Shown: positions 3,433 through 42,575 of the stretch, piece after piece
How the letters are laid out: each line of letters starts with the position of its first letter
How positions within the stretch are numbered: position 1 is the first letter of the stretch
NCBI RefSeq assembly: GCF_016903815.1
Contig: NZ_CP069971.1
Reading direction: 5' to 3' (one strand)
Length of the DNA stretch: 48,644 nucleotides
From: Escherichia coli
Lineage (GTDB): Bacteria; Pseudomonadota; Gammaproteobacteria; Enterobacterales; Enterobacteriaceae
Program-made: the position numbers and the translations under genes
The notes under the pieces: model-generated
Seen by the model: only the letters and a program-made list of their open reading frames with translations
What the model was told of the DNA's origin: nothing
Databases searched by the model: none

Positions 3433-4089
3433 ATGAAAAGCAACGACGAGAACATCAAGAAAGAAATAGGTCTGCGCATTCAGACTCTACGGAAACAATC
3501 CGGCATGACTGCCGGAGATCTCCAGCAAGTCACTGGAATAGGCTTAAGCACCTTGCAGAACTATGAGGCCGGATTAAGACAACCATCTATACCTGCCATC
3601 AAGAAAATCGCGCACGCCCTGAAAGCATCAGCGCCTTATATCGCGTGCTTAACAGATAACCCGTTCCCACCCCAGAATACTAACGCTCCTGTTATTCCTG
3701 GGCTTGTAGCTATAAAAAATGACATAGCATCGCACGCCGGAGAAAAGCCAGTGCTGGCGATAGAACAGGAGATTCTACGAAGCAAGAACATCAACCCATC
3801 GTCTCTGTCAGTTCTCCAGAGCAACGATGAGTTAATGTCACCAACAATATCCCCTGGCTCCCAAGTCCTGATTGATACAGACGATACAGAGATTCATGAG
3901 GGGATCTATGCCCTTGAAGACAGAAATGGCCTGGTTGTTTTGAGGCACTGTAGAGTCATACCGGGTGACAATGCTGTTATGCTGTCAACCGAAAGGGATG
4001 CTGAAATGAACACTAAGCATCTGAATAACGAGGAATTTAAGCGTTATAAAGTTCTGGGCCGCGTAGTTAGTGTTGTCAACTGGTTATGA
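3433..4089 (+). CDS. CI-like repressor (N-terminal HTH, C-terminal LexA/S24-type autopeptidase domain)
   Basis: 218 aa; HTH GLRIQTLRKQSGMTAGDLQQVTGIGLSTLQNYEAG; C-terminal ...VVLRHCRVIPGDNAVMLSTERD...YKVLGRVVSV resembles S24 peptidase. Confidence 0.75.
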   Translation: MKSNDENIKKEIGLRIQTLRKQSGMTAGDLQQVTGIGLSTLQNYEAGLRQPSIPAIKKIAHALKASAPYIACLTDNPFPPQNTNAPVIPGLVAIKNDIASHAGEKPVLAIEQEILRSKNINPSSLSVLQSNDELMSPTISPGSQVLIDTDDTEIHEGIYALEDRNGLVVLRHCRVIPGDNAVMLSTERDAEMNTKHLNNEEFKRYKVLGRVVSVVNWL

Positions 4090-4131
4090 TACACAGCACG
4101 GCGAAAGCCGTGCATTTCTACGCTCAAAAAA

Positions 4132-4146
4132 ACCACATTTTGTGGT
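4132..4146. promoter_or_regulatory. operator site ACCACATTTTGTGGT next to a TTGACA element
   Basis: Perfect 7-5-7 palindrome AAACCAC-ATTTT-GTGGTTT directly upstream of the 4182 ORF. Confidence 0.55.
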
Positions 4147-4181
4147 TTTGACAACATGTGAAAGTATAAAAGAGGCTACGC

Positions 4182-4556
4182 ATGGAATTACATACAGCCA
4201 ATAAAAACGAAACTCTGATCACTGCTGGAATCGAAATCCAAGCGTTGAACATAGCGATTGAGTGTATGTTATGCCAAATCATTGATAATGAGAAAGATAT
4301 CGACTGGATATCATCTACCCTTCATCTTGCTTACGAGCAAAAAGCCTGCCTCAAAACAGCCTTACAATACGATGTGCCTTCTGTATCAAAGCTGTGCCAG
4401 TCATTGATGGCATATAACAGAGCTATCATTTCTGTATGCCTCATGATTCTCGATGAGAATACCCCTCTTAGCGACCGCTCAGAAGCAGCTCTAACCCTCT
4501 CACGTAAACAGCGACAGCTAGCAAATCAACTGATATCAACGATAGCTGACCTCTGA
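4182..4556 (+). CDS. hypothetical protein (operator-controlled orphan gene)
   Basis: 124 aa ORF with an upstream GAGG RBS; flanked by an operator upstream and a hairpin terminator downstream. Confidence 0.45.
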   Translation: MELHTANKNETLITAGIEIQALNIAIECMLCQIIDNEKDIDWISSTLHLAYEQKACLKTALQYDVPSVSKLCQSLMAYNRAIISVCLMILDENTPLSDRSEAALTLSRKQRQLANQLISTIADL

Positions 4557-4560
4557 CTGC

Positions 4561-4585
4561 AAGCGGGCTAACGCCCGCTTATATG
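4561..4585 (+). terminator. intrinsic terminator hairpin
   Basis: AAGCGGGC-TAAC-GCCCGCTT followed by a T-rich stretch. Confidence 0.5.
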
Positions 4586-4589
4586 ATTA

Positions 4590-4683
4590 TAGATTTATAT
4601 AATTATATAAAACGCTTTTCATCCGCCAAAAAGTTGGTTATGCTTACCTCGTTCTATAAATATAGATTTATAGAATTATATAA
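4590..4683. repeat. two AT-rich composite sites (ATAGATTTATA + TATAATTATATAA) upstream of parA; candidate centromere/operator
   Basis: 4590-4610 ...tagatttatataattatataa and 4661-4683 tatagatttatagaattatataa. Confidence 0.5.
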
Positions 4684-4706
4684 CCAAACACATGGAGTCT
4701 CGACAA

Positions 4707-5360
4707 ATGACTATCTCTGTAGGTATTTTCAACGGAAAAGGCGGCGTAACCAAATCAACAATTGCCCGTGCTTTAGCAGTTGCTTATGCAAAGGCTGGCT
4801 GGAATGTATGCCTGATCGATATGGATGTGCTTAACGGAACGGTAACGCGTTGGGTACAACGCAGAATGGCCAACAATATCGAACCAGCAATCGCGGCGCA
4901 GCCGTGCGGCACACCATCACAAGTCCAGAAAATCATCGAATCAGAAGTATACGACCTGGTTATCGTCGATGGCGGTGCCTACGCATCTGAATCAGTACCG
5001 AAGCTCTCTGAATTTCTGGATATGGTTATTTTGCCAACCAGATTCTCTACCGATGACCTGGAAACCACCGTTAACACAGCTCACGGCATCGTTAAAAAGG
5101 GTGTACCAATCAAGAAAATTTGCATGGTGTTTTCCGGCGCGGCTGAAAACGAAGCTGACTATATTGAAGCCCAAGAGTACCTGGCTAATACGCCATACTT
5201 TGTTGTCGATAAGTACATTCCCCACAAGCCAGCTCTGAGCAAAGCTCAGGATAAGGGCTTAAGCCTTATTGAGTGCTCATACGTTGCGCCACGCAAAAAG
5301 GCAGACGATGTTATCCAGGGGATTATCAATCAGCTTGAGGCTCTGACTACTGCCGCGTAA
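4707..5360 (+). CDS. parA: ParA-family partition ATPase (deviant Walker A)
   Basis: MTISVGIFNGKGGVTKSTIA...CLIDMD; GGAG RBS about 10 nt upstream of the ATG at 4707 (the ORF track starts at an upstream in-frame ATG, 4692). Confidence 0.8.
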   Translation: MTISVGIFNGKGGVTKSTIARALAVAYAKAGWNVCLIDMDVLNGTVTRWVQRRMANNIEPAIAAQPCGTPSQVQKIIESEVYDLVIVDGGAYASESVPKLSEFLDMVILPTRFSTDDLETTVNTAHGIVKKGVPIKKICMVFSGAAENEADYIEAQEYLANTPYFVVDKYIPHKPALSKAQDKGLSLIECSYVAPRKKADDVIQGIINQLEALTTAA

Positions 5361-5391
5361 TATATAATTATAGTTTTATAGATTTATATAA
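5361..5391. repeat. AT-rich palindromic site between parA and the ParG-like gene
   Basis: tatataattatag ttt tatagatttatataa, the same motif family as at 4590-4683. Confidence 0.45.
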
Positions 5392-5403
5392 AAGGGGATA
5401 CAC

Positions 5404-5652
5404 ATGGCCGCACCATCAAAACCACCGAAAAAGAACAGCAAAGGCGTACCGCCATCAATCGAACAACCGCAGGTTTTCGACCCGACTGAAACGCCGACCA
5501 GAACCAAATCAGGTGGGGCACAAATGGCGTTTAACGTCGACCCTGAATTTAAACGCGAGTACAAAACGTTCGCCAGCTCAATGGATATGTCATTGAAAGA
5601 AGTGCTGACAAAATCTTTTGAGTTACTCAAGGCTCAATACAACCAGAAGTAA
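5404..5652 (+). CDS. small partition/centromere-binding protein, ParG-like (predicted ribbon-helix-helix)
   Basis: 82 aa; flexible basic N-terminus and C-terminal MAFNVDPEFKREYKTFASSMDMSLKEVL, RHH-like; immediately downstream of parA. Confidence 0.55.
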   Translation: MAAPSKPPKKNSKGVPPSIEQPQVFDPTETPTRTKSGGAQMAFNVDPEFKREYKTFASSMDMSLKEVLTKSFELLKAQYNQK

Positions 5653-5714
5653 GAGAAGGTGACGGCCTCCAGCGCCAACTGTTGGCCGTCGCGACACAAC
5701 AAGGGGAATTTGTT

Positions 5715-5864
5715 ATGTCCGAGCAACAATATACACGGTTACTGAAAACTCGTCTAACCGACCTCAAACGGCTGCAAGCTGGTTGCTTATTTGCCCTGCT
5801 ATCTACCAGGCCAGAATGGGTACGTGAAGCAGTTCTGAAAGGTTTAATGCGCTCCAGCGTTTAA
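5715..5864 (+). CDS. hypothetical small protein (49 aa from ATG 5715)
   Basis: AAGGGG RBS 8 nt upstream of ATG 5715; the track ORF at 5682 begins with TTG. Confidence 0.3.
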   Translation: MSEQQYTRLLKTRLTDLKRLQAGCLFALLSTRPEWVREAVLKGLMRSSV

Positions 5865-5874
5865 ATTCAACCAT

Positions 5875-5900
5875 AAAAAAGGCCCCCGAAGGGGCCTAAT
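5875..5900 (-). terminator. intrinsic terminator (GGCCCC-CGAA-GGGGCC, T-run on minus strand)
   Basis: Perfect GC hairpin flanked by an A6 run on the plus strand, i.e. T6 on the minus strand; lies between convergent genes. Confidence 0.65.
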
Positions 5901-5902
5901 CG

Positions 5903-6022
5903 CTACTTGCTGCTAATGTTTATCGTCACATTCAGAGCGTTATCAGTAATCTTCCAACCCTCCCCATGTGGCGTAAACAAAGCTCCAGTAACAACGATAA
6001 AAATACACATACAGTATTTTTT
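5903..6022 (-). CDS. small hydrophobic peptide (about 40 aa), function unknown
   Basis: MKKYCMCIFIVVTGALFTPHGEGWKITDNALNVTINISSK with an AGGG RBS, ending at the terminator hairpin. Confidence 0.3.
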   Translation of the reverse strand, partial: KKYCMCIFIVVTGALFTPHGEGWKITDNALNVTINISSK

Positions 6023-6423
6023 CATTGTATGGCCCTTACAGGCCGTTTCACGGCATCCCCACCGACGAAAACAACGCGAGAGCAAGCACGGCTGCTTGTG
6101 CTTGCATGTACGGCAACGGAGAATCCTCCCCTAAAGTCGGTGCCCGGGTGCGAATCGGCGGGAAGGTCCACAGGTATTTTACGATTATTTTAAGATTAGT
6201 TATAGGAAAGAAATTAAACGAAAAAACTCGTTTATTTTCACAAAATCAGTAACCTACCCACAATCTGTGAGTTTGCAGGCACAACAAGAACCACAATTTT
6301 ATGAAGCATAATAGTGGACTATTATTACCTTTTGGGTAAAATTAACTTGCTGCTTGTGCTTGCGTGGTTGTTTATACAACAACGTAATGCTGAAAGGACC
6401 GCGAATCCGATCAGCACGAAAGA

Positions 6424-6449
6424 ACCGTCCTCAATAGGGCGGTTTTTTT
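6424..6449 (+). terminator. intrinsic terminator/attenuator in the antirepressor leader
   Basis: ACCGTCCT-CAAT-AGGGCGGT followed by T7. Confidence 0.6.
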
Positions 6450-6468
6450 GTTTCTGCCTACCAATAAA

Positions 6469-6483
6469 CCCACACTATGTGGT
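6469..6483. promoter_or_regulatory. operator-like site CCCACACTATGTGGT (ACCAC-N5-GTGGT family)
   Basis: One mismatch to the operator consensus seen between the CI-like and Cro-like genes. Confidence 0.5.
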
Positions 6484-6593
6484 TGTCTCTGTTAAAATCC
6501 CGCCGTATTGACATAAATGCGCCATTGGTGGACACTTTCCTAGCCGTAGCAAAATCTACGGTCGGGATTGGAACCCCGTAGACACAATGGCGC

Positions 6594-6616
6594 ATACCGC
6601 GTTAGCGGTTTTTTTA
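6594..6616 (+). terminator. second terminator-like hairpin in the antirepressor leader
   Basis: ACCGC-GTTA-GCGGT followed by T7. Confidence 0.45.
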
Positions 6617-6781
6617 TGCGTAAAGCACTGCTACACCCAAATTATGGTGGGGCGTGCGGGGGAGTCGTAAGACTCGCCGGTTCGTCATTGTGTCCGGTAG
6701 TTCCAACCCTGCACGTCTCACCACCCAATGATTGGAACCTGACGGTGGTGAGTATCCTTAACCTTTAAGGGAATCATCACA

Positions 6782-6973
6782 ATGACAAACCTACCCCATG
6801 ACTATTACGTCAACCTCGTAAAGATCCTTCTCAAGAAAGCCTCATACGCCGATAAATTCCGCCTGGCTGAAATAATCGAGCGCGAAGCTATGCGCATCGC
6901 CAGCAACGATAACGCTGTTTCTGTCGCAAAAATCTCCCTCGTAACCAAAGTAGTTATGGGAGGTGCAAAATGA
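6782..6973 (+). CDS. small protein translationally coupled to the antirepressor gene
   Basis: 63 aa; its stop overlaps the ATG of the next gene (ATGA overlap at 6970). Confidence 0.45.
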   Translation: MTNLPHDYYVNLVKILLKKASYADKFRLAEIIEREAMRIASNDNAVSVAKISLVTKVVMGGAK

Positions 6974-8151
6974 AAACGCTTCCGACCGTTAACACCCTAC
7001 AGCCTATCCTGCATAACCAGATCCCCGTTATCACTACTGAACTACTGGCGCAATTGTATGGAACCGAGCGCCAACGTCTGACGAACAATTTCAATAGAAA
7101 CAAGGAACGTTTTATAGAAGGTAAACACTTTTTTAGGATAGAAGGTAAAGAGTTACGAGAGTTGAAGAACAAAAACTCTTTAAGAGTTCCTGTGAGAGTA
7201 GTTAACGAACCATCTTTAAGAGGGTTACAAATTCCCCCGAAAGTTCGCTCCCTCATCCTCTGGACAGAACGCGGGGCTGCACGTCACGCCAAAATGCTTG
7301 AAACTAACCAAGCGTGGGATGTGTTCGAACGGCTGGAAGACTGCTATTTCAGCCAGAACGCGCAAACGGCCGCGACCGTAACCGTCTCGCCAAGCAATGC
7401 TCGTGAGGTTGTTGATACGCTCAACGCCAAACCAATGTATTACGTTAAGGTGTGCAATAACGAGCCACTCACAACCTCAGCCGATGTTGCCCAGGCATTC
7501 AGCACCACAAACAATTCCATCGTTATGGCCATCGATGCGTTACGCATTCCTCGCACAGCTGCGGCGCGTCATTTCTTTAAAGAGCAACGACCGTTGGAAG
7601 GAAGCGACCGCGAAATAACAATCTATCGCATGACAAAAGACGGATTTACCTTGCTCATGGAAAGTATCGACGGTCCAAGCGTGAAGGATATCAAGCTGGC
7701 CTACATTGAAGCTTTTAACGCTATCAGCAGCGTGTTAAAGGCAGAATACGAGCGAATACTATACAACCGACTGTATCAGGAAACAAAGATTATCCGAACG
7801 GCAACAGAACATCATCGGCTATTAACGGAACCAAACTACCGCAAGACACTAATCAAAGAGTTTGACAAAGCGACGGAGAAAACTAAAGCGGCACTAAATC
7901 TACCAACAATGACTAAGGATGATGTGATATCAGCCTTACTTCTTGATCTACTCAGAAACGCCAGAGCACTTATAAGCTTTGACGAAAACCTGAATCCTCA
8001 GCTCAAGCTACTACCACCGACAGGCAAAGTAGTCGACCAGGCTGATCACAACAGCATACTCAGCGTTCTGGATGCAAACCTGCCAGCCAGGACACTACAG
8101 GAACTGATAAAAATATCTGCGGATAAACTGGCCGCAGGTGCAAAACCATAA
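6970..8151 (+). CDS. antirepressor-like protein (ORF6N/KilA-type N-terminal domain)
   Basis: 393 aa; N-terminal ...NNFNRNKERFIEGKHFFRIEGKELRELK...LILWTERGAARHAKMLETNQAWDVFERLEDCYF matches the ORF6N-type antirepressor pattern as I recall it. Confidence 0.6.
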   Translation: MKTLPTVNTLQPILHNQIPVITTELLAQLYGTERQRLTNNFNRNKERFIEGKHFFRIEGKELRELKNKNSLRVPVRVVNEPSLRGLQIPPKVRSLILWTERGAARHAKMLETNQAWDVFERLEDCYFSQNAQTAATVTVSPSNAREVVDTLNAKPMYYVKVCNNEPLTTSADVAQAFSTTNNSIVMAIDALRIPRTAAARHFFKEQRPLEGSDREITIYRMTKDGFTLLMESIDGPSVKDIKLAYIEAFNAISSVLKAEYERILYNRLYQETKIIRTATEHHRLLTEPNYRKTLIKEFDKATEKTKAALNLPTMTKDDVISALLLDLLRNARALISFDENLNPQLKLLPPTGKVVDQADHNSILSVLDANLPARTLQELIKISADKLAAGAKP

Positions 8152-8821: not shown

Positions 8822-9386
8822 AGAAATCTCCTTTTAGATATAAGGGTAAAGCAATATCGTATTAGATCTTCCTTAAGACACAACCCCCCCTCCCCCCATA
8901 CAGGGTGCCCTTTACCGGAGTTCCGGCCCCTTCTCAAAAGCATCAAAAAAAGCTCGAGATCGAGTACCGGAACTCATGCCACCAGATAGCTCCACATCGT
9001 TTCCAATGCTTCGCCGCCGTGTGCGCCCTGTGACCCACAATCATGCCATTGGTCGTCTGATATACCTTCTTCTGCTCATAGAGCACAGGCGAGTTGTCGC
9101 ACTCCTGCCTTTCTCAGACTCGACTTAGTTTAGATCGCTGTTCCTGGCTTGCGTCAGCACACTTTCCCCTTGTACGCATACCCGCGCGCCACTTCGCCCA
9201 AAAACACCGAACCCAACGAAGTAGCAAAGACAACGACGCGAGCGTGAGTCTGAAACGTGCACCAGTAAAAAAGGGGTTGCAGGCGCAAAAAGATTTGATT
9301 ATCTTTAGACGCAAGAAAGCCGCCCCAATCAAGAGGTGTCTTTTTAAATCCAGCCTACCAAGCAAGATTTAAATTTCAGACTGAAA

Positions 9387-9408
9387 ACCGCCCGGCAAGG
9401 CGGTTTTT
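9387..9408. terminator. bidirectional intrinsic terminator
   Basis: ACCGCC-CGGCAA-GGCGGT with T-runs on both strands. Confidence 0.65.
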
Positions 9409-9456
9409 GTCTTTCTGGCGCTTACATTACACCACCAGAAAACGATCCGTAAAGGA

Positions 9457-9729
9457 TCATTTGATCCCTTGTTCCAATTCTGACGACACTTTAACCTTTT
9501 CCCATACAAGGGTTTGCAGCCTTAACAGAATCGCGTCTTTATCAAGGCGTGAAAGATCCTTAACCATATCGTCAAATGACAGAACGCGAATGGCCATCTC
9601 AATGACCCTCGGCGGCTCCCCCTTCTCATATCGCTTATATGTAGCCAACGATATCCCAAATTCTTCGGCGGCTCGCTCCTGCGTCCAGTTCATCCCACGA
9701 CGCCATAATTTCAATTCATAACCCGTCAT
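9457..9729 (-). CDS. XRE-family HTH DNA-binding protein
   Basis: MTGYELKLWRRGMNWTQERAAEEFGISLATYKRYEKGE; GAGGAGG RBS before the ATG at 9729 (the track ORF starts further upstream). Confidence 0.6.
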   Translation of the reverse strand: MTGYELKLWRRGMNWTQERAAEEFGISLATYKRYEKGEPPRVIEMAIRVLSFDDMVKDLSRLDKDAILLRLQTLVWEKVKVSSELEQGIK

Positions 9730-9740
9730 AGCATCCTCCT

Positions 9741-9790
9741 CGCACAATACTAACACTCGCAAAGTGTCAAAATGACACTTTGCGTATTGT
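9741..9790. promoter_or_regulatory. long nested palindrome (GCAAAGTGTCA-TTT-TGACACTTTGC flanked by CACAATAC/GTATTGTG)
   Basis: Perfect 11-bp arms with imperfect outer arms, between the 126-aa gene stop and the HTH gene RBS. Confidence 0.6.
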
Positions 9791-30828: not shown

Positions 30829-31917
30829 TTAATTTTTATCGCGGTTTTTAAATACTGACCCAATAACATTTTTTACTGCTTCAGCCTGTTTGTTGCCGTT
30901 GTTTTCTGGTTGATTAACATCAACTGAATCATTCACCTCACTTGCGTCTTCTTGCCGTTGATTAAGAAAGTTTTTGTTACGCGCTCGCTCTGCATTCATA
31001 ATTTCCAAAGCAAGTTCAGCCGCAGAAACTCCTGTTTTGAATTTTGCATTCTTAACCAGGTCGTCATGACCTGGAATTACGCTATTCTCGATTGTTTCAA
31101 TGCGCTCGCGTTCTGATTTAACGCCCTCGTCTTTACCAGCATTAAAAACCTGATTGTATAATTCTGGATGTTTATTTTTTAATTCATCAAGAGTCACAAC
31201 ATCGTCCTCATTTTGTTCATTTAATTCAGTAGATAATTCATTTTTATTTTGTGGCAACTTTGCGAGCGAATCAGGTAATTTTGAAAACCTTGATGCTTCA
31301 AAAGTTATTCCATTGAGCGAAAGCATCCCTTCCTTTATAGAAGCGGATAAGCGCATTGGTTTTTCAACTTCGTCAGCAAATCCAAGCTCTACAGCCTCTT
31401 CTGCATTTAGCCATGTTTCCTGATCCATTAGTTCAATTAATTTATCCTCAGAAAGCCCTGTTTTCTCCTTATATGCAGATAAAATACTATCTCGTATCTT
31501 ATCCATCATCTCAGCAATATCACGTAGTTCATCTGCATCACCAGCAGCAAATGTCCACGGATTATGGATCATCATCATAGCATTAGATGGGATAACAACT
31601 TTATCACCTGCCATTGCAATAATGGTTGCAGCCGATGCAGCAATACCATCAATATAAACAGTAATATTAGCCTTATGACGTTTTAATGAAGAAAGAATAG
31701 CTTGAGCAGTAAAAACAGAACCACCATAACTATTAATTTTTACGTTGATAGCATTTGATGATATATTCTTTAATTTATTAACTATGTCAGAAGAAGAAAC
31801 CTCATCAAATTCGCCAATATATCCGTAGATTAAAAGTTCAGCCGGAGAGTCATCTTCACCCGTGCTATTTTTTATTTCCCACCAATTAGCCATCATCTGT
31901 CTCCATATTTTGTTCAT
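30829..31917 (-). CDS. prohead protease, ClpP-like (S14) with C-terminal scaffold-like acidic region
   Basis: ...INSYGGSVFTAQAI...YIDGIAASAATIIAMAGDKVVIPSNAMMMIHNPW. Confidence 0.75.
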   Translation of the reverse strand: MNKIWRQMMANWWEIKNSTGEDDSPAELLIYGYIGEFDEVSSSDIVNKLKNISSNAINVKINSYGGSVFTAQAILSSLKRHKANITVYIDGIAASAATIIAMAGDKVVIPSNAMMMIHNPWTFAAGDADELRDIAEMMDKIRDSILSAYKEKTGLSEDKLIELMDQETWLNAEEAVELGFADEVEKPMRLSASIKEGMLSLNGITFEASRFSKLPDSLAKLPQNKNELSTELNEQNEDDVVTLDELKNKHPELYNQVFNAGKDEGVKSERERIETIENSVIPGHDDLVKNAKFKTGVSAAELALEIMNAERARNKNFLNQRQEDASEVNDSVDVNQPENNGNKQAEAVKNVIGSVFKNRDKN

Positions 31918-33460
31918 TTACCTCAGAAACAGGAGGCGTAATCAGCCCCAACTCACGGCGAGCATTCTCTTCTCTGCCACAAATTTGTGCTGTTTCTTCC
32001 CAGTTAAGACCTGACATTTCAGCCGCTTCCTTTTCACGGGTAGAGAATGTTTCCTCAACACGCAGTTTTGCAGCTTTGACTTCTTTAAGGGGATCTAATT
32101 GGCCTTGTGATGGGCCATACCATTGAGCGCCACTCCATGCAGCGCGATATTCAGGCCCATAAAAAAAACCAGGGGCAATAACACGACCTTTAGCAACGGC
32201 TTCGGCCAACCATTCCTCATAGATCGGTTGGCAAAATGACTGAACCATCCAGTCACGTCGCATACGGAACATTTTCCAGGCTTCAAGTAATGCGGCCCTG
32301 CTTGCGCTATAACTTGCTGTAAAATGCTTTACCAAGAGTTCGTAAGGGAGTTCTAAAGCAGCCCCAATTTGACGGCATATGGCGACAACAAAACCATCAA
32401 ATGCCGTATTTGGTCGCCCGGGATTTGCTGTATCTATCGACTCACCTTCACCCAAACTTACTATGGAGCCATTCCCCATTTCTTGGGTGTTATCATCATG
32501 GTTATCGATCTGCTCGTACTGAGGGATACCCGATTCACCGACTGGCCCATCAGGAGCGTCTGTTTTAATAAAGACAGTAAACATCCCTGACACAACCGCA
32601 GCAACCAATTCAGCATCGGTGTATCGTCCTAACTGCTTCAATGCTTCAATTACAGGAGCAAGGACAGGAACGCCACGGCGTTGCCCAGGCCTTTCAAAAT
32701 CCTGCATGACATGCAGAATATTTCTTCTTCCTGTTTTACTCCCATATGCGGGAATACGTTCCCACTTGCGGGTTACAAAACCAGAAGTCCCGGCTGGGTG
32801 ATGTTTTGCAACCCAGTACGCCACAGGCTCGCTAAATTCACCAACCTCTACGCCACCGTAAAGATTTGGTATAAAACGATCCTCTGGATTGCAAACACGA
32901 TCACCTTCAATTAAATAGACGCACAAATCATATATAACACCCTTACGCTTAATAACTGGTAGCGCAGCAAATATATCGCCAGATGTTAACGCAGATATTT
33001 GGACCAATGATTGCAATTGTCCAAAAGTACACATTCTTGATGCATCACAATTTGGAGAATCAGCCCATAATCTAAACTCACGCTCAACATGCTTTTCCCA
33101 TGCTCGCGCTTCTTCCTGCGTCATCCCCAAGAAATCGGCATCAATGTTCGCATTTAGTTTTAAACCGGAACCAACAACGTTTGTCCTGATAGTTTTTATT
33201 GCGCCAACCGATAGCGGGTTTCCCATGAAGAGATCACGAGAACGCTCACGCAATTTATCTATATTTTTAACAATATCATCATCAGGGGAACCAGCTTTAC
33301 TAAACCAACCCCTTAATGATTTTTTATGAGTGCTTGCACCATGACGTGAATATCCAAGGTTATTAATACCTTCAAGTGCTTCTAACCGTTTTCTTGCCAA
33401 AGCTCGATTTAATGCCCTCTGAGGTGAAAACGGCGCAATAACTCGATCAAGAATATTCAT
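31886..33460 (-). CDS. portal protein (lambda gpB-like)
   Basis: 524 aa between the gpW-like and protease genes. Confidence 0.75.
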   Translation of the reverse strand: MNILDRVIAPFSPQRALNRALARKRLEALEGINNLGYSRHGASTHKKSLRGWFSKAGSPDDDIVKNIDKLRERSRDLFMGNPLSVGAIKTIRTNVVGSGLKLNANIDADFLGMTQEEARAWEKHVEREFRLWADSPNCDASRMCTFGQLQSLVQISALTSGDIFAALPVIKRKGVIYDLCVYLIEGDRVCNPEDRFIPNLYGGVEVGEFSEPVAYWVAKHHPAGTSGFVTRKWERIPAYGSKTGRRNILHVMQDFERPGQRRGVPVLAPVIEALKQLGRYTDAELVAAVVSGMFTVFIKTDAPDGPVGESGIPQYEQIDNHDDNTQEMGNGSIVSLGEGESIDTANPGRPNTAFDGFVVAICRQIGAALELPYELLVKHFTASYSASRAALLEAWKMFRMRRDWMVQSFCQPIYEEWLAEAVAKGRVIAPGFFYGPEYRAAWSGAQWYGPSQGQLDPLKEVKAAKLRVEETFSTREKEAAEMSGLNWEETAQICGREENARRELGLITPPVSEVNEQNMETDDG

Positions 33461-33707: not shown

Positions 33708-35564
33708 CTATATGGTTACGCCTTTACTTATAACTCTACGGCGTCTTCTACGTATACCTGACGAGTTCTGCACATACACATTACCTCGCATTTCCTGTTC
33801 GGCAAGCCAGTTAAAATTAGGGTTCAGAATTTCCATCGCGGCAGTTGCATAGTTACGGCAATCAAGAGGCTCGTTACGCTCGTAGACTTTCACCCACTTT
33901 TCTTTTGTCTGCCCATTTTTATATTCAAATATTTTTTTCTCTGATAATAATCCTTTAAAGTATTCGGTATCATATCCTCTGTCAGAATCTAATGGGAAAT
34001 GCATATAACCAGGACCAGGATCATGTAGTTTAATTCTTGCCATGATGGTCCCTTTACCATCATCAACCCCCAAATTAAACAACATAGCACCCACACGGTT
34101 ATTATTACTTGGCTTTCCTATAAATGGTAAACCTACCCCACCACGCCCCCTGATAGAGTATATTCGCCTTGATTCTCTCGGCTTAGTAAAGCGATATACC
34201 TCTGTCGTAAAATGCCCACCAGAGTCAATACAAACGGAAGAAATCTGTAATTTTCGACCGTCACGGAATGACCAGCTACGGAGTAAGTATTCATCAAGTT
34301 GTTTCCAGACAACATCTTGTGCGGGATCACCTGGGAATATTTTATATTCTATCCCCCATGACTCCTTACCTTTTCCCCAACCGACCAATTCACAAACTAA
34401 ATACGTGTCCTGTACGTCAACACCAGCACTTAACAATAAAACATCATCTGGTAAAAACTCTTCAAACCTTATTCTGCGTTGCAACAAGTATTCAGGATCG
34501 ATATCGTCTTTAGCATCCTCTTTCCATGGCTCACCCAGCTTAAGGTTAATAAACTCCATTAATCCATTTTTATCGCGGTTTCTGGTTGCTTCCGTAAATT
34601 CTTCAACCAGCTCTGACAATGCAACCCACGGGGAGTAAAGACTGTTAATATGAAAACCAACAATACCTTTAACTCCAGTATGTTCAGCTATCCATACCCC
34701 CTTCGCCAACCAATCAACGTCTGGTTTACCAGATCCGCGCATAATCCCGCCGCACTCACAGCACTCATATCTGGCCGTTTCCGGTAACGCCTCACCTGAA
34801 TCGCTCTTATCCCATCTGACTTGCGACCATTTCATCACCTGCATGGTGCCACAACATGGGCAAGGAACATGGTAGTAACGCTGATCGGAGAGCTTAAACC
34901 ACTTGTGGATTTTGCTCGTTTCCTCCAAAACAGGAGTAGAAACAAAAACTTTCTTACGATTATGAAAGTTGGTAGTACGCTGAATACCTAGTTTTAGTGG
35001 GTCGCCCTCCTGCGTCACACCGTAACGATCAATCTCATCAGCTAACAGTATTCGAATTGGCCTGGATGCAAGACCTGCTGGGGAATTAGCACCAACAAGT
35101 GCTATATATCCACCAGCGTAATGCTTCATACGTATAGTCGTGCTGGACTTTTTGGCTGCACCGCGCCCCTCTTTCCCTTCATGCAGCTTGTGTTTCAAAC
35201 CAGGGGAATATTTGAACGTCGGATCAATACGCTCCTTTGAAAAAGCCTCAGCCGCCTCTACCGTTGGATAAATCATCAACTGAGGAGATGGCTCCTGATC
35301 TGCAAAGTAACCCATAACATTTAGCTGTAATTCGGATTTACCAATTTGTGAGCTACATTGCATCACTACTGTTTCTGTATCAGCGTCACCAATAACATCC
35401 ATTGGTTCACGTAAATATGGCACTCGGCTTGTACGCCACGGCCCTGGCTCTGGAGACGTTCCCGGCGCTACATGACGATACTTATCAGCCCATTCGGAAA
35501 CAGTTAGCCGTGATTTAGGGCGAAGCGCACGGAAAAAAGCGGTGCTCCATACTGTTTCGCCCAT
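33708..35564 (-). CDS. terminase large subunit (lambda gpA-like)
   Basis: 618 aa; ...YHVPCPCCGTMQVMKW...RYECCECGG... Cys cluster and overall size. Confidence 0.85.
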   Translation of the reverse strand: MGETVWSTAFFRALRPKSRLTVSEWADKYRHVAPGTSPEPGPWRTSRVPYLREPMDVIGDADTETVVMQCSSQIGKSELQLNVMGYFADQEPSPQLMIYPTVEAAEAFSKERIDPTFKYSPGLKHKLHEGKEGRGAAKKSSTTIRMKHYAGGYIALVGANSPAGLASRPIRILLADEIDRYGVTQEGDPLKLGIQRTTNFHNRKKVFVSTPVLEETSKIHKWFKLSDQRYYHVPCPCCGTMQVMKWSQVRWDKSDSGEALPETARYECCECGGIMRGSGKPDVDWLAKGVWIAEHTGVKGIVGFHINSLYSPWVALSELVEEFTEATRNRDKNGLMEFINLKLGEPWKEDAKDDIDPEYLLQRRIRFEEFLPDDVLLLSAGVDVQDTYLVCELVGWGKGKESWGIEYKIFPGDPAQDVVWKQLDEYLLRSWSFRDGRKLQISSVCIDSGGHFTTEVYRFTKPRESRRIYSIRGRGGVGLPFIGKPSNNNRVGAMLFNLGVDDGKGTIMARIKLHDPGPGYMHFPLDSDRGYDTEYFKGLLSEKKIFEYKNGQTKEKWVKVYERNEPLDCRNYATAAMEILNPNFNWLAEQEMRGNVYVQNSSGIRRRRRRVISKGVTI

Positions 35565-35569
35565 GAGGT

Positions 35570-36121
35570 TTATTCTTCCTGCTTAATAAATCGGGATTCC
35601 TGGAGCGCCTGAAGCGCAAAATTAATCTCGTCTTCAATAATGCGTTCGATCTCCCTGGCTGTTTTGCCTTCACAACGGGGAGCTGCTCTTGGAGCAATAC
35701 TAAATAAGCGGCTACGCAATTCATTAGCTGCCAGAAATGCATCATCCCTGACCGCATCTTTAGCGATGAGAGAGCCTTCCTTTTCTTCAAATTCAAGGCG
35801 TTTCAGCTTTGCCTGATAAATTTTTTCTGCGGTCTTAGCCTTGTTGAATTGCACCGCAACACCGGAAGTACCACCAGCTAATCCGGCATCATCAGCGGGT
35901 AACTCTGGTTGTTCCGAAGATATCCCATGCCCTCTTTTTCCATTTTCAGCAGATACCTCACGACCAACCTGTCGGCTCGCTTCATAAGCCGCACTGGCTT
36001 TATCAAAATCCAGCTTGCCGCTTTTCAGCACTGGAATGCGACCGGAACGACAGAGCTTCGTAACCATTGCCGGAGAAATACCTTTCCGGCGGGCAAACTC
36101 TGACTTACTGACGATGGCCAT
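35570..36121 (-). CDS. terminase small subunit (Nu1-like)
   Basis: MAIVSKSEFARRKGISPAMVTKLCRSGRIPVL... HTH N-terminus; ATG overlaps the upstream gene stop (TAATG). Confidence 0.7.
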   Translation of the reverse strand: MAIVSKSEFARRKGISPAMVTKLCRSGRIPVLKSGKLDFDKASAAYEASRQVGREVSAENGKRGHGISSEQPELPADDAGLAGGTSGVAVQFNKAKTAEKIYQAKLKRLEFEEKEGSLIAKDAVRDDAFLAANELRSRLFSIAPRAAPRCEGKTAREIERIIEDEINFALQALQESRFIKQEE

Positions 36122-36711
36122 TACTTGCAACCATTGGCAAGATACTGAACAAATCCCTCATGCGTTTCATGCGCGTCGTGGTACTGACGATAAACATCCA
36201 GCAACAATGCAATTTCCATATCCGTCGCGGGAATACGTTCTTTATCAATAGCCAGGTACTTAATTTGAACAACAGGGGAAGAATTATCGTCTTCTTCCTG
36301 CGGCTGTTCATCGCTTAACATTTCGTCAAGCTCTGCATCATTAAACCCAAGCAGATCAATATCAAAATCATCATCCATTAACTCTTTGACTTCTTCGGCC
36401 AGAAGCTGCATATCCCAGCCAGCATTTAAGGCCAGCTTGTTATCTGCAATCCTGTACGCCTTCTTCTGTTTTTCAGAAAGGTTACTCAACCGAATCGCCG
36501 GAACTTTATCCATTTCCAGAATTTCGGCTGCTGCAAGCCGCCCATGCCCCGCAATCAGTTCATTCTTTTCATCGATCAGCACAGGATTAGTGAAACCGAA
36601 CTCACGGATACTGTTCACCAACTGTTCAACTTGCTCATCTGAATGAGTCCGTGAATTTTTGGCATATCTGAGCAGCTTACCGACTGGTAAATATTCGATT
36701 TTTAGAGCCAT
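36121..36711 (-). CDS. ParB-like N-terminal domain (ParB/Srx fold) protein
   Basis: 196 aa; ...LIDEKNELIAGHGRLAAAEIL...; paralog of 39378-40001. Confidence 0.7.
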   Translation of the reverse strand: MALKIEYLPVGKLLRYAKNSRTHSDEQVEQLVNSIREFGFTNPVLIDEKNELIAGHGRLAAAEILEMDKVPAIRLSNLSEKQKKAYRIADNKLALNAGWDMQLLAEEVKELMDDDFDIDLLGFNDAELDEMLSDEQPQEEDDNSSPVVQIKYLAIDKERIPATDMEIALLLDVYRQYHDAHETHEGFVQYLANGCK

Positions 36712-37268
36712 TTTTTAACCGCCATAACACAACAGGTTAAAGAAAACTGTTTAACTTATTGATACTAAAAGAGAAAAATGACGATCTTTTTACTCATAAA
36801 AAATCACACAAACCAGCATAATCATCTGATTTTATTAAGTTTTTATAAGTAAAAAGGATCTTGCGATGGTTTTTTGGTTAAAAGATTGGATGTATTTGCA
36901 TGATTTATAACGATTTTTATCAGAACAACATCACATTGGTTAAAGATCTGCGCGTATCTTGATGATCTAAAAGAAAATTTTCTACTTTCTTTTTACCAGC
37001 ACAAGCACAGCAAAAAATCACGTTTTCCCAATATTTTTCAATGAGATGAGTAAATTTCTTTTACCGCAACTTTTAACCTAACTTTTTTCACGTTTAGCTA
37101 GCCGAACATCGGGGTTCGAATGACCCGCATCCAACGCTTTTGTCCAGAAGGACCCAATTCTGCCGGACGATGAAACGATGCTCGTGCACCCCCACAGACA
37201 GCCAGCGAGCGACGCTACAGAACACAGTGAATACACTCTGCATAACAACACCATCAACCACACGATGA
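36712..37268. other. AT-rich non-coding region with clustered GATC sites; candidate cos/packaging and late-promoter region
   Basis: About 550 bp without a credible ORF, upstream of the terminase operon. Confidence 0.35.
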
Positions 37269-37988
37269 TTAACGAGAGAAGGTCTTGGAAAGAATGTCAT
37301 CAATAGCCTTTGTGACTTCATCAGCAAACGCATCCTCACCAGCACGCAGCGCCACGCCATGCCAATCAAGACGCTGCGAATAGTTAGGTTGCTGGATAAA
37401 CGTAAGGATCAACGTAGGACGCCGCCCAACGCGCTGCCAGACGCCTGGTTGAAGCGGGTTACTTGTACCAGGTCGAACAACAAAAAACTCCGTAGGCTTG
37501 CCCTGACGGCGATTTTGATGCGCATCTCGCTGAACTCTTAGGCCAGATAAGACCTGCTGTAATTGCCCCCGCGAAATATTCCCGTATTTGTCCAGCTTTG
37601 CGCCGGGACCAGGAGCAATCTGCCAGCCGTTAGGCAAATATCCACCAGCCCTTAGCGCCCCTTCTGAGCGTTTGTACTGTCGTTGGCCACCTTCGATTTG
37701 CGGAGTCAACGTTACAGGGGCTGGCGTTCCTCCCCATTCACGAGCATACACAATGGCTGTAGGATCACTCTTCTTTGCGGCCAAAACGTAAGTAGAGTTC
37801 TGAATCCACGGCGTGGGCCTGTCAAATACCCGATTAATTTCATTCTTAATCGCAGCCTGAGAAGCCTTTGCCGTTCTGGTTGCCGCAAGCGCCATTGCGA
37901 ACGGCAATTCGCGTTCTTCAAGGCGCTGGAGTTGTCGTTGAATATCCTGAGAAGAAAAATCCATCTTTATCTCAATTCTGTCAGCCAC
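37269..37988 (-). CDS. hypothetical protein (239 aa)
   Basis: ORF downstream of the ParB-methyltransferase fusion gene. Confidence 0.5.
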   Translation of the reverse strand: MADRIEIKMDFSSQDIQRQLQRLEERELPFAMALAATRTAKASQAAIKNEINRVFDRPTPWIQNSTYVLAAKKSDPTAIVYAREWGGTPAPVTLTPQIEGGQRQYKRSEGALRAGGYLPNGWQIAPGPGAKLDKYGNISRGQLQQVLSGLRVQRDAHQNRRQGKPTEFFVVRPGTSNPLQPGVWQRVGRRPTLILTFIQQPNYSQRLDWHGVALRAGEDAFADEVTKAIDDILSKTFSR

Positions 37989-38004: not shown

Positions 38005-39384
38005 CTACTTAATCAACGGCCGGAAAGCCGCCAGCACATCATCAGATCGTCCGATTGTTGAACCACCAGGCAACGGCAACTCAAACTCAAAACGAACAGC
38101 TTTCTCCAGACTCGCCCAACTAAGGGAATCATCGTTAATGACGTGCAAATACCAGCTCTTACAGTTGAATATTGACCGCTTAATCCTGAAACCATGTACA
38201 CGACACAACTGCTTCACTTCCTCATCAGAGTGAAACTTCTGGTAAAACCAGTGCCCCTTCCGGTACAACGCGGTAAAACCGTCATGATCAATAAAATAAA
38301 GCCGGCTTTTGGAACTCGCCGCTTGTGTTTGCTTCAGGACTGTTTCCAGTTCTCCACGGCTACGGCCAGAAAAGAATATTGACCCACCAGCTTTACACAG
38401 GCCTTTCAGAACCGTCAGAACGGACCATTCAGCCTCGACACTATCGACCGAGTTCAAAACGCTATCGCAAATCACGTAGTCGTAACGCCCTCGCGTTTTT
38501 AAGTCGTCCACCAGCGTATCAATCATCCGGTTTGTTGCGGCCCTATCCAGAGTGTTTCCAGCGCCCTTACGGCGGAAAAGCTCGAGATCATGCAGGTTAT
38601 ATCCCTTTGCCCTGAGCATTCGCGCGTAGTCTCCCTGCCCCGAACCAAAATCAATTCCTCTTGGCGTCTTGGCAATGATCGGGAGGATCAACGACTCATA
38701 CAGATTTGATTTCAGGCTGCCACCATTACGCAACCGCATAAGCTGCGCATACGTCTGGATGTATGTTGTTTTCTCCAGATGAGAATACTCAAATACACCA
38801 TAAGTTTTATTCAGATAACTTTGGTATTTTTCCTTCTCAACATCAGGGATCACAAACACCGTTAGCGGTGTGCGCGTCATTTTCGCTGCTAATGCATACT
38901 GAGCACAGTGAATAACCTCACCAGACTGAGTAGCAACACAACCACCCCACGGACCATACTTGATAACCAGTTCCGCTATGTTCTTTCGAACATATGCCAT
39001 TTTCGCGCGCATATTGCCTGAGATCTGGCTTGCCGATACCTGAACAAAACCATGCTTATCTTCCAGACCGGACACCCTGCAACGCTCATCTCCGCTATCA
39101 AAATCCGTTCCGTTATGCAGTTGGTTAAACCGTACTTCGTCGTATACCGTCGTTTCACAGGGCAACACATACACCGCAGCACGCGTTATTCCCAACTTAC
39201 GTAGCGCCTTCGTCCTTTGGTGTCCCGCCACCAGCAAATCGCCGCGCACTATCAATGGCTTCACAAGCCCCAGCTCCCTGACGCTTTCCGCCAGCCTCGC
39301 AAGATCATCCTCACCGATAAAACGCGGGTTATATTCCGCGCCGCGTAGGTGCGTTATGTCGTAATTGAGGTGAAGCATCAGCAC
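38005..39384 (-). CDS. fusion protein: ParB-like N-terminal domain + class-I SAM-dependent methyltransferase-like C-terminal domain
   Basis: N-terminal ...LIVRGDLLVAGHQRTKALRKLG...; C-terminal GIDFGSGQGDYARML, DYVICDSVL, LCKAGGSIFFSG motifs; no DPPY/NPPY motif seen. Confidence 0.65.
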   Translation of the reverse strand: MLMLHLNYDITHLRGAEYNPRFIGEDDLARLAESVRELGLVKPLIVRGDLLVAGHQRTKALRKLGITRAAVYVLPCETTVYDEVRFNQLHNGTDFDSGDERCRVSGLEDKHGFVQVSASQISGNMRAKMAYVRKNIAELVIKYGPWGGCVATQSGEVIHCAQYALAAKMTRTPLTVFVIPDVEKEKYQSYLNKTYGVFEYSHLEKTTYIQTYAQLMRLRNGGSLKSNLYESLILPIIAKTPRGIDFGSGQGDYARMLRAKGYNLHDLELFRRKGAGNTLDRAATNRMIDTLVDDLKTRGRYDYVICDSVLNSVDSVEAEWSVLTVLKGLCKAGGSIFFSGRSRGELETVLKQTQAASSKSRLYFIDHDGFTALYRKGHWFYQKFHSDEEVKQLCRVHGFRIKRSIFNCKSWYLHVINDDSLSWASLEKAVRFEFELPLPGGSTIGRSDDVLAAFRPLIK

Positions 39385-40001
39385 ACCTCCCCAGCCAGCA
39401 ATGCGGATACAAATCCGATATAGCTGCCATTATCATCAACATAACGAGACACCGCGCAGTCAAAACGATCCGCTTCCTCATCCGTTGCCGGGATTTTATG
39501 ACCTCCAAATGACAGGTACTGAACTTTTACGCCTGATTTGGCCTCATCCTTCTCAAATGGGATATCCATACCCTCTGTGTCATCGTAGACTGCCGCACTC
39601 AATAAGTTATCCAGTTCGCGCTGAGTAAAACCAATTGAGTCCAGAGCAAAATCATCGGCCGCAAGATCTGCAAGCTCCGCGCTTAACAACTCTTCATCCC
39701 AACCAGCATTCAGCGGAATACGGTTGTCGGCCAGACGATATGCCTTCTTCTGATTCTCCGTTAGCCCAGCCAGAACAATGCAGGGAACATCATCCATCCC
39801 CAACTGAGTGGCCGCAGCAATTCGACCATGACCAGCAATTACAACGTTGTTCTCGTCTATCAGGATCGGATTAGTCCATCCGTACTCCTGTATGCTGGCA
39901 ACAATCTGATCTACCTGCTCCACGGAGTGTGTGCGAGCGTTCTTTTCATAACCAATCAACACAGAAAGTGGTAAAGAAACCACATTAAGATGTTTTGTCA
40001 T
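39378..40001 (-). CDS. ParB-like N-terminal domain protein (paralog)
   Basis: 207 aa; aligns by eye with 36121-36711 over most of its length. Confidence 0.7.
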   Translation of the reverse strand: MTKHLNVVSLPLSVLIGYEKNARTHSVEQVDQIVASIQEYGWTNPILIDENNVVIAGHGRIAAATQLGMDDVPCIVLAGLTENQKKAYRLADNRIPLNAGWDEELLSAELADLAADDFALDSIGFTQRELDNLLSAAVYDDTEGMDIPFEKDEAKSGVKVQYLSFGGHKIPATDEEADRFDCAVSRYVDDNGSYIGFVSALLAGEVC

Positions 40002-41987: not shown

Positions 41988-42575
41988 CTATGCCACTTGC
42001 CAGAGAGCATCATGCAACTGGATACCTCCATTGCACTGGTTGCCCCAGCCATGCCAACCATCAGGTAAATCACCGCGAGCAAACAGCTCAATACGAGGAA
42101 CATCACCTAACAGCCTTACCAGCTTGTCACGAACCACATCAGGCTTCCGAGAATGCTCCAGACGAGGCGATGTAAACGACTGAATGATCCCCGCATCAAG
42201 GCGGGTCGGCAATTTGCCTTTTACCGCAAACAAGCAATCTTCACTGTTTGCACGAGTCATATGCCCCATCCCCATCACCAGCTTATCTGGTTGTCGGCTA
42301 CCACATTTGTTCCATGTGAAGCCCTTCATGGTCATAAGCCTGAATCCCCATGCTTTCACCACCAGCAACGCTTCTTCTGGCTGAGTCGGAACCCACCACA
42401 TGGCCAACAAACACGATTCAGGATTAGCAAGCTGCCAGACAGGAATACGAGCAATATCCTCAGCTTTCATCGTTGGATACTTAAAACCAGCTCCACGATT
42501 CCCATCCTTACACTTATCTTTGTATTCCCAGGGGGGATCTGCATAAATCAGATTAAACAATGCAATTGCCTCCAT
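41988..42575 (-). CDS. MT-A70-family DNA N6-adenine methyltransferase
   Basis: 195 aa; LIYADPPWEY and ...SRKPDVVRDKL... motifs. Confidence 0.75.
   Translation of the reverse strand: MEAIALFNLIYADPPWEYKDKCKDGNRGAGFKYPTMKAEDIARIPVWQLANPESCLLAMWWVPTQPEEALLVVKAWGFRLMTMKGFTWNKCGSRQPDKLVMGMGHMTRANSEDCLFAVKGKLPTRLDAGIIQSFTSPRLEHSRKPDVVRDKLVRLLGDVPRIELFARGDLPDGWHGWGNQCNGGIQLHDALWQVA

Follow-up and report, generated by a model that had tools for sequence, protein, structure and literature searches.

A probable cos region in the gap upstream of the terminase genes of an Escherichia coli phage-plasmid

Upstream of the terminase genes in the window, the stretch of 48,644 nucleotides of Escherichia coli DNA analyzed here, lies a gap between genes at 36712-37268 (557 bp) that we conclude, at a probability of about 0.8, to be the cos region of a temperate myovirus living as a plasmid of ~48.6 kb. 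All coordinates are positions in the window. As reconstructed from relatives and by analogy with phage lambda, the region would consist of a cosQ, a cosN, a spacer resembling the I2 segment of lambda, and a cosB-like array of repeats of extended length. As a genome feature it is ordinary and of a kind already known, although a cos had been unannotated before in this phage-plasmid family. At 95% identity or better, the gap sequence occurs in 71 of 5,426 complete E. coli genomes. Because 70 of these 71 carriers have it on plasmids, mostly of ~47-51 kb and including that of ATCC 25922, the window is best read as a ~48.6-kb phage-plasmid of the myovirus type.

The gap is bounded by the stop codon of an open reading frame (ORF) of 239 amino acids (aa) and by the ATG of a gene for a ParB-like protein. 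A first-pass annotation had described it as AT-rich, about 550 bp long, free of ORFs, and placed upstream of the terminase genes. The ORFs inside it are only short and unconserved, and both terS and terL lie downstream on the minus strand, with the ParB-like gene sitting before terS. The base composition was rightly described for 36712-37100 (29% GC) and wrongly for 37101-37268 (54% GC). All genes near the gap are on the minus strand, as are the cos features, and in the plasmid of E. coli ATCC 25922 the homologous gap carries no RefSeq annotation. A cos had been named as a candidate and is supported, but elsewhere in the gap, with its cut site away from the GATC cluster that had drawn attention to the region. 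The features proposed at the DNA ends are as follows.

37114-37125, both strands: cosN, the putative 12-nt cohesive end, minus strand 5'-GGTCATTCGAAC, plus strand GTTCGAATGACC
37149-37155, minus strand: cosQ-like heptamer, GGGTCCT, with the top-strand nick 23 bp downstream
37079-37113, minus strand: conserved spacer from cosN to repeat 1, CCCG...CTAGCT (37096-37101), then an A6 tract (37083-37088)
37156-37268, minus strand: GC-rich tail (54%) between the stop codon of the 239-aa ORF and cosQ, which would become the right end of the virion DNA

Homologous database records, by the positions at which they begin and end, place cosN at 37114-37125, with putative nicks between 37125 and 37126 and between 37113 and 37114. 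Three genomes deposited as phages of Yersinia pestis EV76, namely vB_YpM_41, vB_YpM_39, and vB_YpM_44, match the window at 97-98.5% identity across the gap plus flanking DNA and at 100% in TerL. The records of vB_YpM_41 and vB_YpM_39 have GGTCATTCGAAC as their first bases (window 37125 down to 37114), while that of vB_YpM_44 starts exactly 12 nt after the start of this 12-mer and has the 12-mer as its last bases. Such breaks fit the pattern expected of filled-in cohesive ends trimmed on one side or the other. The linear records of four Vibrio relatives break on either side of the homologous 12-mer, GGTGCTCGCGAC: it opens the record of PVP-XSN and stands at both ends of XM1, and the right ends of R19R and X29 hold 10 and 11 nt of it, respectively. 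Defined ends, seen as coverage drop-offs, have been published for Vibrio phage X29. Acinetobacter phage HFM1, whose TerL is 46% identical, has an 11-nt 5' cohesive end annotated by PhageTerm, and the flanks of that end match as GCG/GG...AC/CCC, the slashes marking its edges. By analogy with N15 and HFM1, the overhang GGTCATTCGAAC is most likely 5'-protruding. The site sits at the boundary between the GC-rich and AT-rich parts of the gap, ~150 bp from the nearest GATC. A 16-mer around it is exact in the enteric relatives; IMG/VR matches to this 16-mer in L034-L036, L049, and L057 were rejected as chance, their flanks being unrelated.

The ends of lambda and N15 were aligned with the window and its relatives. 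The heptamer GGGTCCT, reportedly the cosQ sequence of lambda (Wieczorek and Feiss 2001), is shared by lambda and N15 in the same register, and the spacing of 23 bp to the left nick seen in those two recurs in the window, in the enteric relatives L011 and L012, and in XM1. Its spacing is 22 bp in X29 and L033, and L103 has AGGTACT at this position, a match at five of the seven bases. The bases at the left nick, CG/GG, are likewise common to lambda, N15, and the window. The first-pass statement that no lambda-like cosN could be recognized does not survive this alignment, with the heptamer at the distance seen in lambda and N15 and the same bases at the nick. The heptamer and its spacing persist even though TerL, across 92% of its length, has no more than 27.5% identity with gp2 of N15. 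In lambda, cosQ is 7 bp long, highly conserved, and needed for termination (PMC4669245; PMC4856287), and the I2 segment covers bp 18-50 and is AT-rich, with poly-dA and poly-dT (PMC4856287). The spacer at 37079-37113, conserved across the enteric, L103/L033, and Vibrio lineages, all of them non-lambda, may be called positionally analogous to I2. The GC-rich tail at 37156-37268 differs in sequence between lineages and is not conserved, and no significant fold was found there (37126-37272, z=-1.0).

Past the spacer, 24 distinct enteric sequences, made up of IMG/VR relatives, the three Yersinia phages, and the window, were compared. The part that they conserve best runs from cosQ through repeat 2, ~70 bp beyond the nick, and the remainder of the gap is heavily diverged except for eight RGT(W)AAA(A)G repeats, oriented F F F R R R F R. 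The array so defined spans ~400 bp at 29% GC and in the window comprises 8-9 GGT(T)AAA(A)G repeats. Five of the nine copies of GGTTAAAR in the window, and five of the ten of RGTWAAARG, fall in the gap. The elements of the array, in order from cosN toward the ParB-like gene, are these.

37070-37078, minus strand: repeat 1, GGTTAAAAG, at the same position in all lineages and comparable to lambda R3
37058-37065, minus strand: repeat 2, GGTAAAAG, kept in all enteric lineages
36989-36997, minus strand: repeat 3, GGTAAAAAG
36896-36985 (edges +/- ~3 bp): 90-bp segment deleted in vB_YpM_44, holding repeat 4 and GATC 36945 and 36964
36938-36945, plus strand (inverted): repeat 4, GGTTAAAG, overlapping GATC 36945
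36876-36884, plus strand (inverted): repeat 5, GGTTAAAAG
36848-36856, plus strand (inverted): repeat 6, AGTAAAAAG, abutting GATC 36857, left arm of a pair with repeat 7
36819-36831, minus strand: site resembling that of integration host factor (IHF), AATCAGatgaTTA, consensus WATCARNNNNTTR, between repeats 6 and 7
36786-36794, minus strand: repeat 7, AGTAAAAAG, abutting GATC 36783, right arm of the pair
36752-36764, minus strand: second IHF-like match, TATCAATAAGTTA, conserved in L011 and not in L012
36735-36742, plus strand (inverted): repeat 8, GGTTAAAG

Repeat 1 lies at a fixed distance from cosN across all lineages; its context, AAAAGTTAGGTTAA, is kept in L103 and L033, and the Vibrio phages have GTTAACAC there. 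Conserved as an inverted pair, repeats 6 and 7 read GATCCTTTTTACY...RGTAAAAAGATC, with AATCAGnnnnTTA between. Among 13 distinct enteric sequences, the IHF-like site that they enclose keeps every consensus base and varies at its four N positions. A ninth, unconserved copy of the repeat (36713-36720) shares bases with the ribosome-binding site. Other lineages fill the corresponding spacer with repeats of their own class: L103, whose TerS is 57% identical, has 11 GGTTAACAAA-type copies in a 545-bp spacer of 30% GC, L033 has six copies of the same type in ~335 bp, and the Vibrio phages have five copies of GTTAACAC in ~140 bp. These are nearly all the copies present in the L103, L033, and Vibrio loci. 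The distance from cosN to the ATG of the ParB-like gene is 400-402 bp in 23 enteric sequences, a constant length despite the heavy divergence of this central non-coding DNA, and 312 bp in vB_YpM_44, whose missing 90-bp segment appears dispensable for growth as a phage. With moderate confidence, on the strength of these sequence comparisons, we read the array as the equivalent of cosB, predicted to be bound by TerS. Alternatively, the ParB-like protein may bind the repeats, in place of TerS or as its co-factor. The genes concerned, together with others referred to below, are the following.

36121-36711, minus strand: ParB_N-domain gene, 196 aa, phrog_620, Pfam ParB_N 6e-8, the first gene after cos
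35570-36130, minus strand: terS, small terminase, 186 aa, phrog_57 7e-42, winged helix-turn-helix-like domain at the N-terminus
33708-35564, minus strand: terL, large terminase of the lambda gpA family, phrog_15 1e-258, Pfam GpA_ATPase 1e-75 and GpA_nuclease 1.5e-84
31886-33460, minus strand: portal gene, phrog_21
37269-37988, minus strand: 239-aa ORF, phrog_1924, "minor tail"
41988-42575: MT-A70-family methylase, phrog_359
3433-4089: CI-like repressor, ~30 kb from the gap
4692-5360: ParA-like gene, ~30 kb from the gap
6970-8151: antirepressor, ~30 kb from the gap

In a structural model of TerS, residues 11-50 reach a predicted local distance difference test (pLDDT) score of ~90. TerS has no significant match among PDB structures. 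The best local structural matches of its N-terminus, none of them significant, are the Pukovnik Xis excisionase, BldC, and RacA, presumably all winged helix-turn-helix proteins of the MerR/excisionase type. The putative recognition helix of TerS differs with the class of repeat, reading ISPAMVTKLC with GGTTAAAAG, LSR[PA]A[VI]TKLC with GGTTAACAAA, and RSHVWV[SK]KLV with GTTAACAC. A shared cosQ/cosN core joined to a different repeat class and a matching TerS helix, as in L033 and L103 versus the window, suggests that the cosB-like classes and TerS are exchangeable packaging-specificity cassettes, which recalls the specificity difference between lambda and phage 21. The terS of L032/L047 ("49% identical") was discarded as a test of co-variation since it is a frameshifted draft of an L024-type gene. 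IMG genome 2880350357 holds two related copies of the element on separate contigs (L024 and L032), both with a frameshifted terS and/or terL, for which sequencing error or decay is possible.

Several observations weigh against the reading as a lambda-type cos or against parts of it. No significant similarity links TerS to lambda Nu1 by BLAST (E=0.41), hhalign (probability 14%), or Foldseek (E>0.3), the hhalign result being a weak alignment of TerS residues 7-38 with Nu1 residues 3-32 (E=0.002, probability 14%). The ParB-like protein, like TerS, differs between lineages. At 330-545 bp and 6-11 copies, the array exceeds the lambda cosB, with its 120 bp and three sites, and repeat 4 lies within the dispensable 90-bp segment; part of the array may therefore serve another purpose. 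The evidence on ends comes from the records of relatives, with a predicted polarity of the overhang, and the Yersinia phage records are labeled circular. The putative cohesive end agrees with that of lambda at three of 12 positions (GGTCATTCGAAC versus GGGCGGCGACCT), which is not the cohesive end of the "lambda-like phages" (PMC4669245), and the right nick is followed by CC, versus the CG conserved in lambda-like phages (PMC4669245). What the element does share with lambda-type cos sites is a gpA-family TerL and a cosQ heptamer at a fixed distance. It would work like lambda cos, yet it is outside the narrow group of Feiss et al. (PMC4669245).

The ParB-like protein adds a component of its own. 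Only a ParB_N domain is found in it, no partition-type helix-turn-helix being detected, and the order ParB-like gene, terS, terL is kept in Vibrio X29 and XM1 and in L103. A long, class-switching repeat array always precedes this gene. Three ParB_N-domain genes bracket cos within 3.3 kb (36121-36711, 38005-39384, and 39378-40001). The latter two lie just before the right end; one encodes a protein of 459 aa, in which ParB_N is joined by phrog_5475, and the other a paralogue of 207 aa. It is conceivable, if rather improbable, that the long array and the ParB_N gene make up a packaging-initiation module that lambda lacks. The ParB-like protein would then load, spread, or nick at the array, its loading and spreading being as those of ParB at parS; the left end would be marked or protected, or terminase helped, and the two conserved GATCs could tie the process to the methylation state of new DNA.

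Four GATC sites do occur within ~200 bp, at 36783, 36857, 36945, and 36964, as first noticed. The "repeated aaagatct elements" reported with them dissolve on inspection: AAAGATCT occurs once only (36942-36949), AAAGATC once per strand, and AAGGATCT once. These elements are the 3' edges of the GGT(T)AAA(A)G repeat; three of the four sites adjoin or overlap a copy, and those three exist because a GATC happens to abut it. Across the window GATC is under-represented, with 135 sites against 182 expected from base composition and 214 by a Markov estimate. When 135 sites were placed randomly, four sites fell together in no more than 185 bp at least once in 79% of trials, and a second such cluster is present in the window at 9444-9555. 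Three of its GATCs share a stretch of 23 bp (aaaacGATCcgtaaagGATCatttGATCcc), and the fourth is at 9555. This second cluster closely follows, on the downstream side, a hairpin resembling a terminator (~9386-9410), and the minus-strand ORF 9457-9762, which by eye resembles a small helix-turn-helix regulator, has its 3' end here.

Methylation-sensitive control, suggested at first pass on the basis of these sites and the MT-A70-type methylase, would make the cluster a Dam-methylation switch on packaging or on expression of the ParB-like and terminase genes, in which the MT-A70 methylase of the element might take part. We consider such a switch very unlikely. Against local dinucleotide composition there is a modest enrichment, with four GATCs where the expectation is 0.70 for the AT-rich part (P=0.004) and 1.43 for the gap as a whole (P=0.045). 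Two sites, 36857 (kept in 22 of 24 unique enteric sequences) and 36783 (19 of 24), stand symmetrically on the outer edges of the inverted pair around the IHF-like site. P1 pac, where GATC-containing elements reportedly control cleavage (Sternberg and Coulby), is the only precedent for the idea that we know of. However, 36945 is confined to the clade of the window and the L011/L017 lineage and is mutated in vB_YpM_39; 36964 is confined to the clade of the window and is mutated in vB_YpM_41; and both are lost in vB_YpM_44 through its deletion. L018 and L031 lack all four positions and have a single GATC elsewhere, and L024 keeps one of the four. In all, enteric relatives have 1-4 GATCs, and the equivalent region of L103 and the Vibrio phages, with the same cos architecture, has none; relatives with 0-4 GATCs do not show the multiple conserved GATC elements of a P1-type pac. 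A comparable cluster is in any case expected by chance somewhere in the window (P=0.79). The MT-A70 gene is present, but its product has no NCBIfam match that would indicate specificity, and host Dam would methylate GATC anyway. The cluster is mostly incidental, a set of host Dam sites within the array and no conserved control device, although 36857 and 36783 may conceivably have some role.

A late promoter had also been proposed for the gap. Between 36500 and 37500 the scans find no sigma-70-like site, versus 1.7 expected in shuffles, and no terminator, and the Vibrio homologues, full of repeats within ~140 bp, leave only ~20 bp from the last repeat to the ATG. A promoter of the ordinary sigma-70 type finds no backing. 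A late promoter that depends on an activator or on IHF and serves the ParB-like/terS/terL operon, existing besides cos at ~36712-36870, is possible, though we think it unlikely. Such a promoter could account for the enteric-conserved blocks 20-150 bp upstream of the ATG (repeats 6 and 7, the two IHF-like sites, and repeat 8), for the constant distance from cosN to ATG despite divergence, and for the unusually good folding of the window sequence at 36775-36870 (z=-4.6). The same facts that count against a sigma-70 promoter, the empty scan and the short Vibrio leader, count against this one. No terminator follows the upstream same-strand gene, and read-through from that gene across the joined cos would therefore be sufficient, as in lambda. 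The hairpin at 36786-36856 was rejected as an RNA element: RNAalifold backs only its outer 13-bp arms, with one compensatory pair, and a search of the gap against Rfam at E<=1 gave no match. Its arms are better read as two inverted, putative protein-binding sites.

Two further explanations would detach the gap from cos packaging altogether. An AT-rich stretch with 8-9 short repeats and GATCs superficially resembles iteron-type origins, of which P1 oriR is an example; together with three nearby ParB_N-domain genes and the plasmid location in 70 of 71 E. coli carriers, this could point to an iteron-type origin or a parS centromere, bound by Rep or ParB-domain proteins and unrelated to packaging. 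This is extremely unlikely, as the array occupies the same place between cosN and the ParB-like gene in XM1 and in X29, which is reported to encode integrases, and in every lineage repeat 1 keeps the same spacing to cosN. The gap has no DnaA boxes, the genes for the ParA-like protein, the repressor, and the antirepressor are ~30 kb off (3433-8151), and the ParB-like protein has the ParB_N domain alone, a partition-type helix-turn-helix being undetected. Adjacent rep or par genes, DnaA boxes, and plasmid association, by which an iteron origin or parS would be known, are not the pattern found for the array. Scarcely credible is the view that the record starts are arbitrary or assembly artifacts and that packaging is by headful from a pac site, the other candidate of the first-pass annotation. 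The circular label of the Yersinia records, for which no accompanying paper on vB_YpM_39, vB_YpM_41, or vB_YpM_44 was found, would permit it, but seven records from several laboratories and two genera all break at one edge or the other of the homologous 12-mer. The published coverage drop-offs of X29 at its ends, the membership of the terminase in the gpA family, the defined ends of related virion genomes, and the register of the cosQ heptamer with that of lambda all argue against pac.

If the gap is a cos region, a course of events can be proposed by comparison and by analogy with lambda. During lytic growth TerS, possibly with IHF and/or the ParB-like protein, would bind the GGT(T)AAA(A)G array at 36735-37078 and so position the gpA-type TerL, which would nick both strands 12 bp apart at 37114-37125. 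Nicking would yield a left end with the overhang GGTCATTCGAAC. Packaging would run toward decreasing coordinates, taking in the ParB-like gene, terS, terL, and then the head and tail genes. One genome length later, at the next cos, the GGGTCCT of cosQ 23 bp before the nick would permit the terminating cut. After injection, the cohesive ends would anneal to give the circular plasmid form represented by the window.

A cos at this position would fix the physical ends and the natural orientation of a phage-plasmid family found in ~1.3% of complete E. coli genomes, including ATCC 25922, a quality-control strain in wide use. It would also define the ~450-bp sequence that a hitch-hiking element or a cosmid needs for packaging, which bears on the prediction of transduction. 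We found no cos annotation in the records examined and no paper describing the cos of this family. Membership in the pSLy3 phage-plasmid group was considered and proved wrong, pSLy3 belonging to the SSU5 supergroup. In the ATCC 25922 homologue a tRNA-Ile is annotated near the MT-A70 gene, ~300-390 bp beyond its start codon (higher window coordinates).

Among known systems, P1 pac is the packaging site of a phage-plasmid with several GATCs, headful packaging, and an unrelated PacA/PacB terminase. It differs in that its GATC elements are the functional repeats, whereas the repeats here read GGT(T)AAA(A)G, among GATCs that are unconserved. Much closer are the Vibrio phages X29, phi 2, vB_VpaM_XM1, PVP-XSN, and R19R, of the proposed family "Weiviridae" (PMC11432961). 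With these the window shares TerL at 63-65% and TerS at 42% identity, the order of end, ParB-like gene, terS, and terL, the flanks GCG/12-mer/CCCG, the cosQ heptamer, CTAGCT with an A-tract, and GTTAA-core repeats before the ParB-like gene. The Vibrio 12-mer GGTGCTCGCGAC is identical to that of the window at eight of 12 positions, the ~140-bp spacer holds its five GTTAACAC copies in the same orientation and no GATC, and X29 has the reported integrases rather than plasmid functions. The papers on XM1 and X29 contain no description of a cos site, and that on XM1 is silent on termini.

N15, like the element described here, is a cos phage with a plasmid prophage, has an annotated 12-nt 5' extension and GGGTCCT in register, and encodes a large terminase, gp2, of the same family. 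It differs in its linear-plasmid prophage, its siphovirus virion, and a cohesive end nearly equal to that of lambda, and it has a "simple" cosB with one critical site for the small terminase (PMC4669245). In lambda cos itself we find the same gpA-family terminase, 12-bp stagger of nicks, terminase genes downstream, GGGTCCT 23 bp upstream with CG/GG at the left nick, AT-rich A-tract spacer between cosN and the first binding site, and repeats in both orientations with an IHF-like site inside an inverted pair; lambda R3 and R2 flank the IHF site I1 (PMC4669245). The lambda cosB, however, has three R sites in 120 bp, where the window has 8-9 repeats of 8-9 bp in ~400 bp, and its inverted pair with IHF lies 50-115 bp from the end rather than ~270-340 bp. 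The window has, in addition, a ParB_N gene between cosB and terS, a largely different cohesive end, CC in place of CG after the right nick, a TerS without significant sequence similarity to Nu1, a myovirus virion, and a plasmid prophage.

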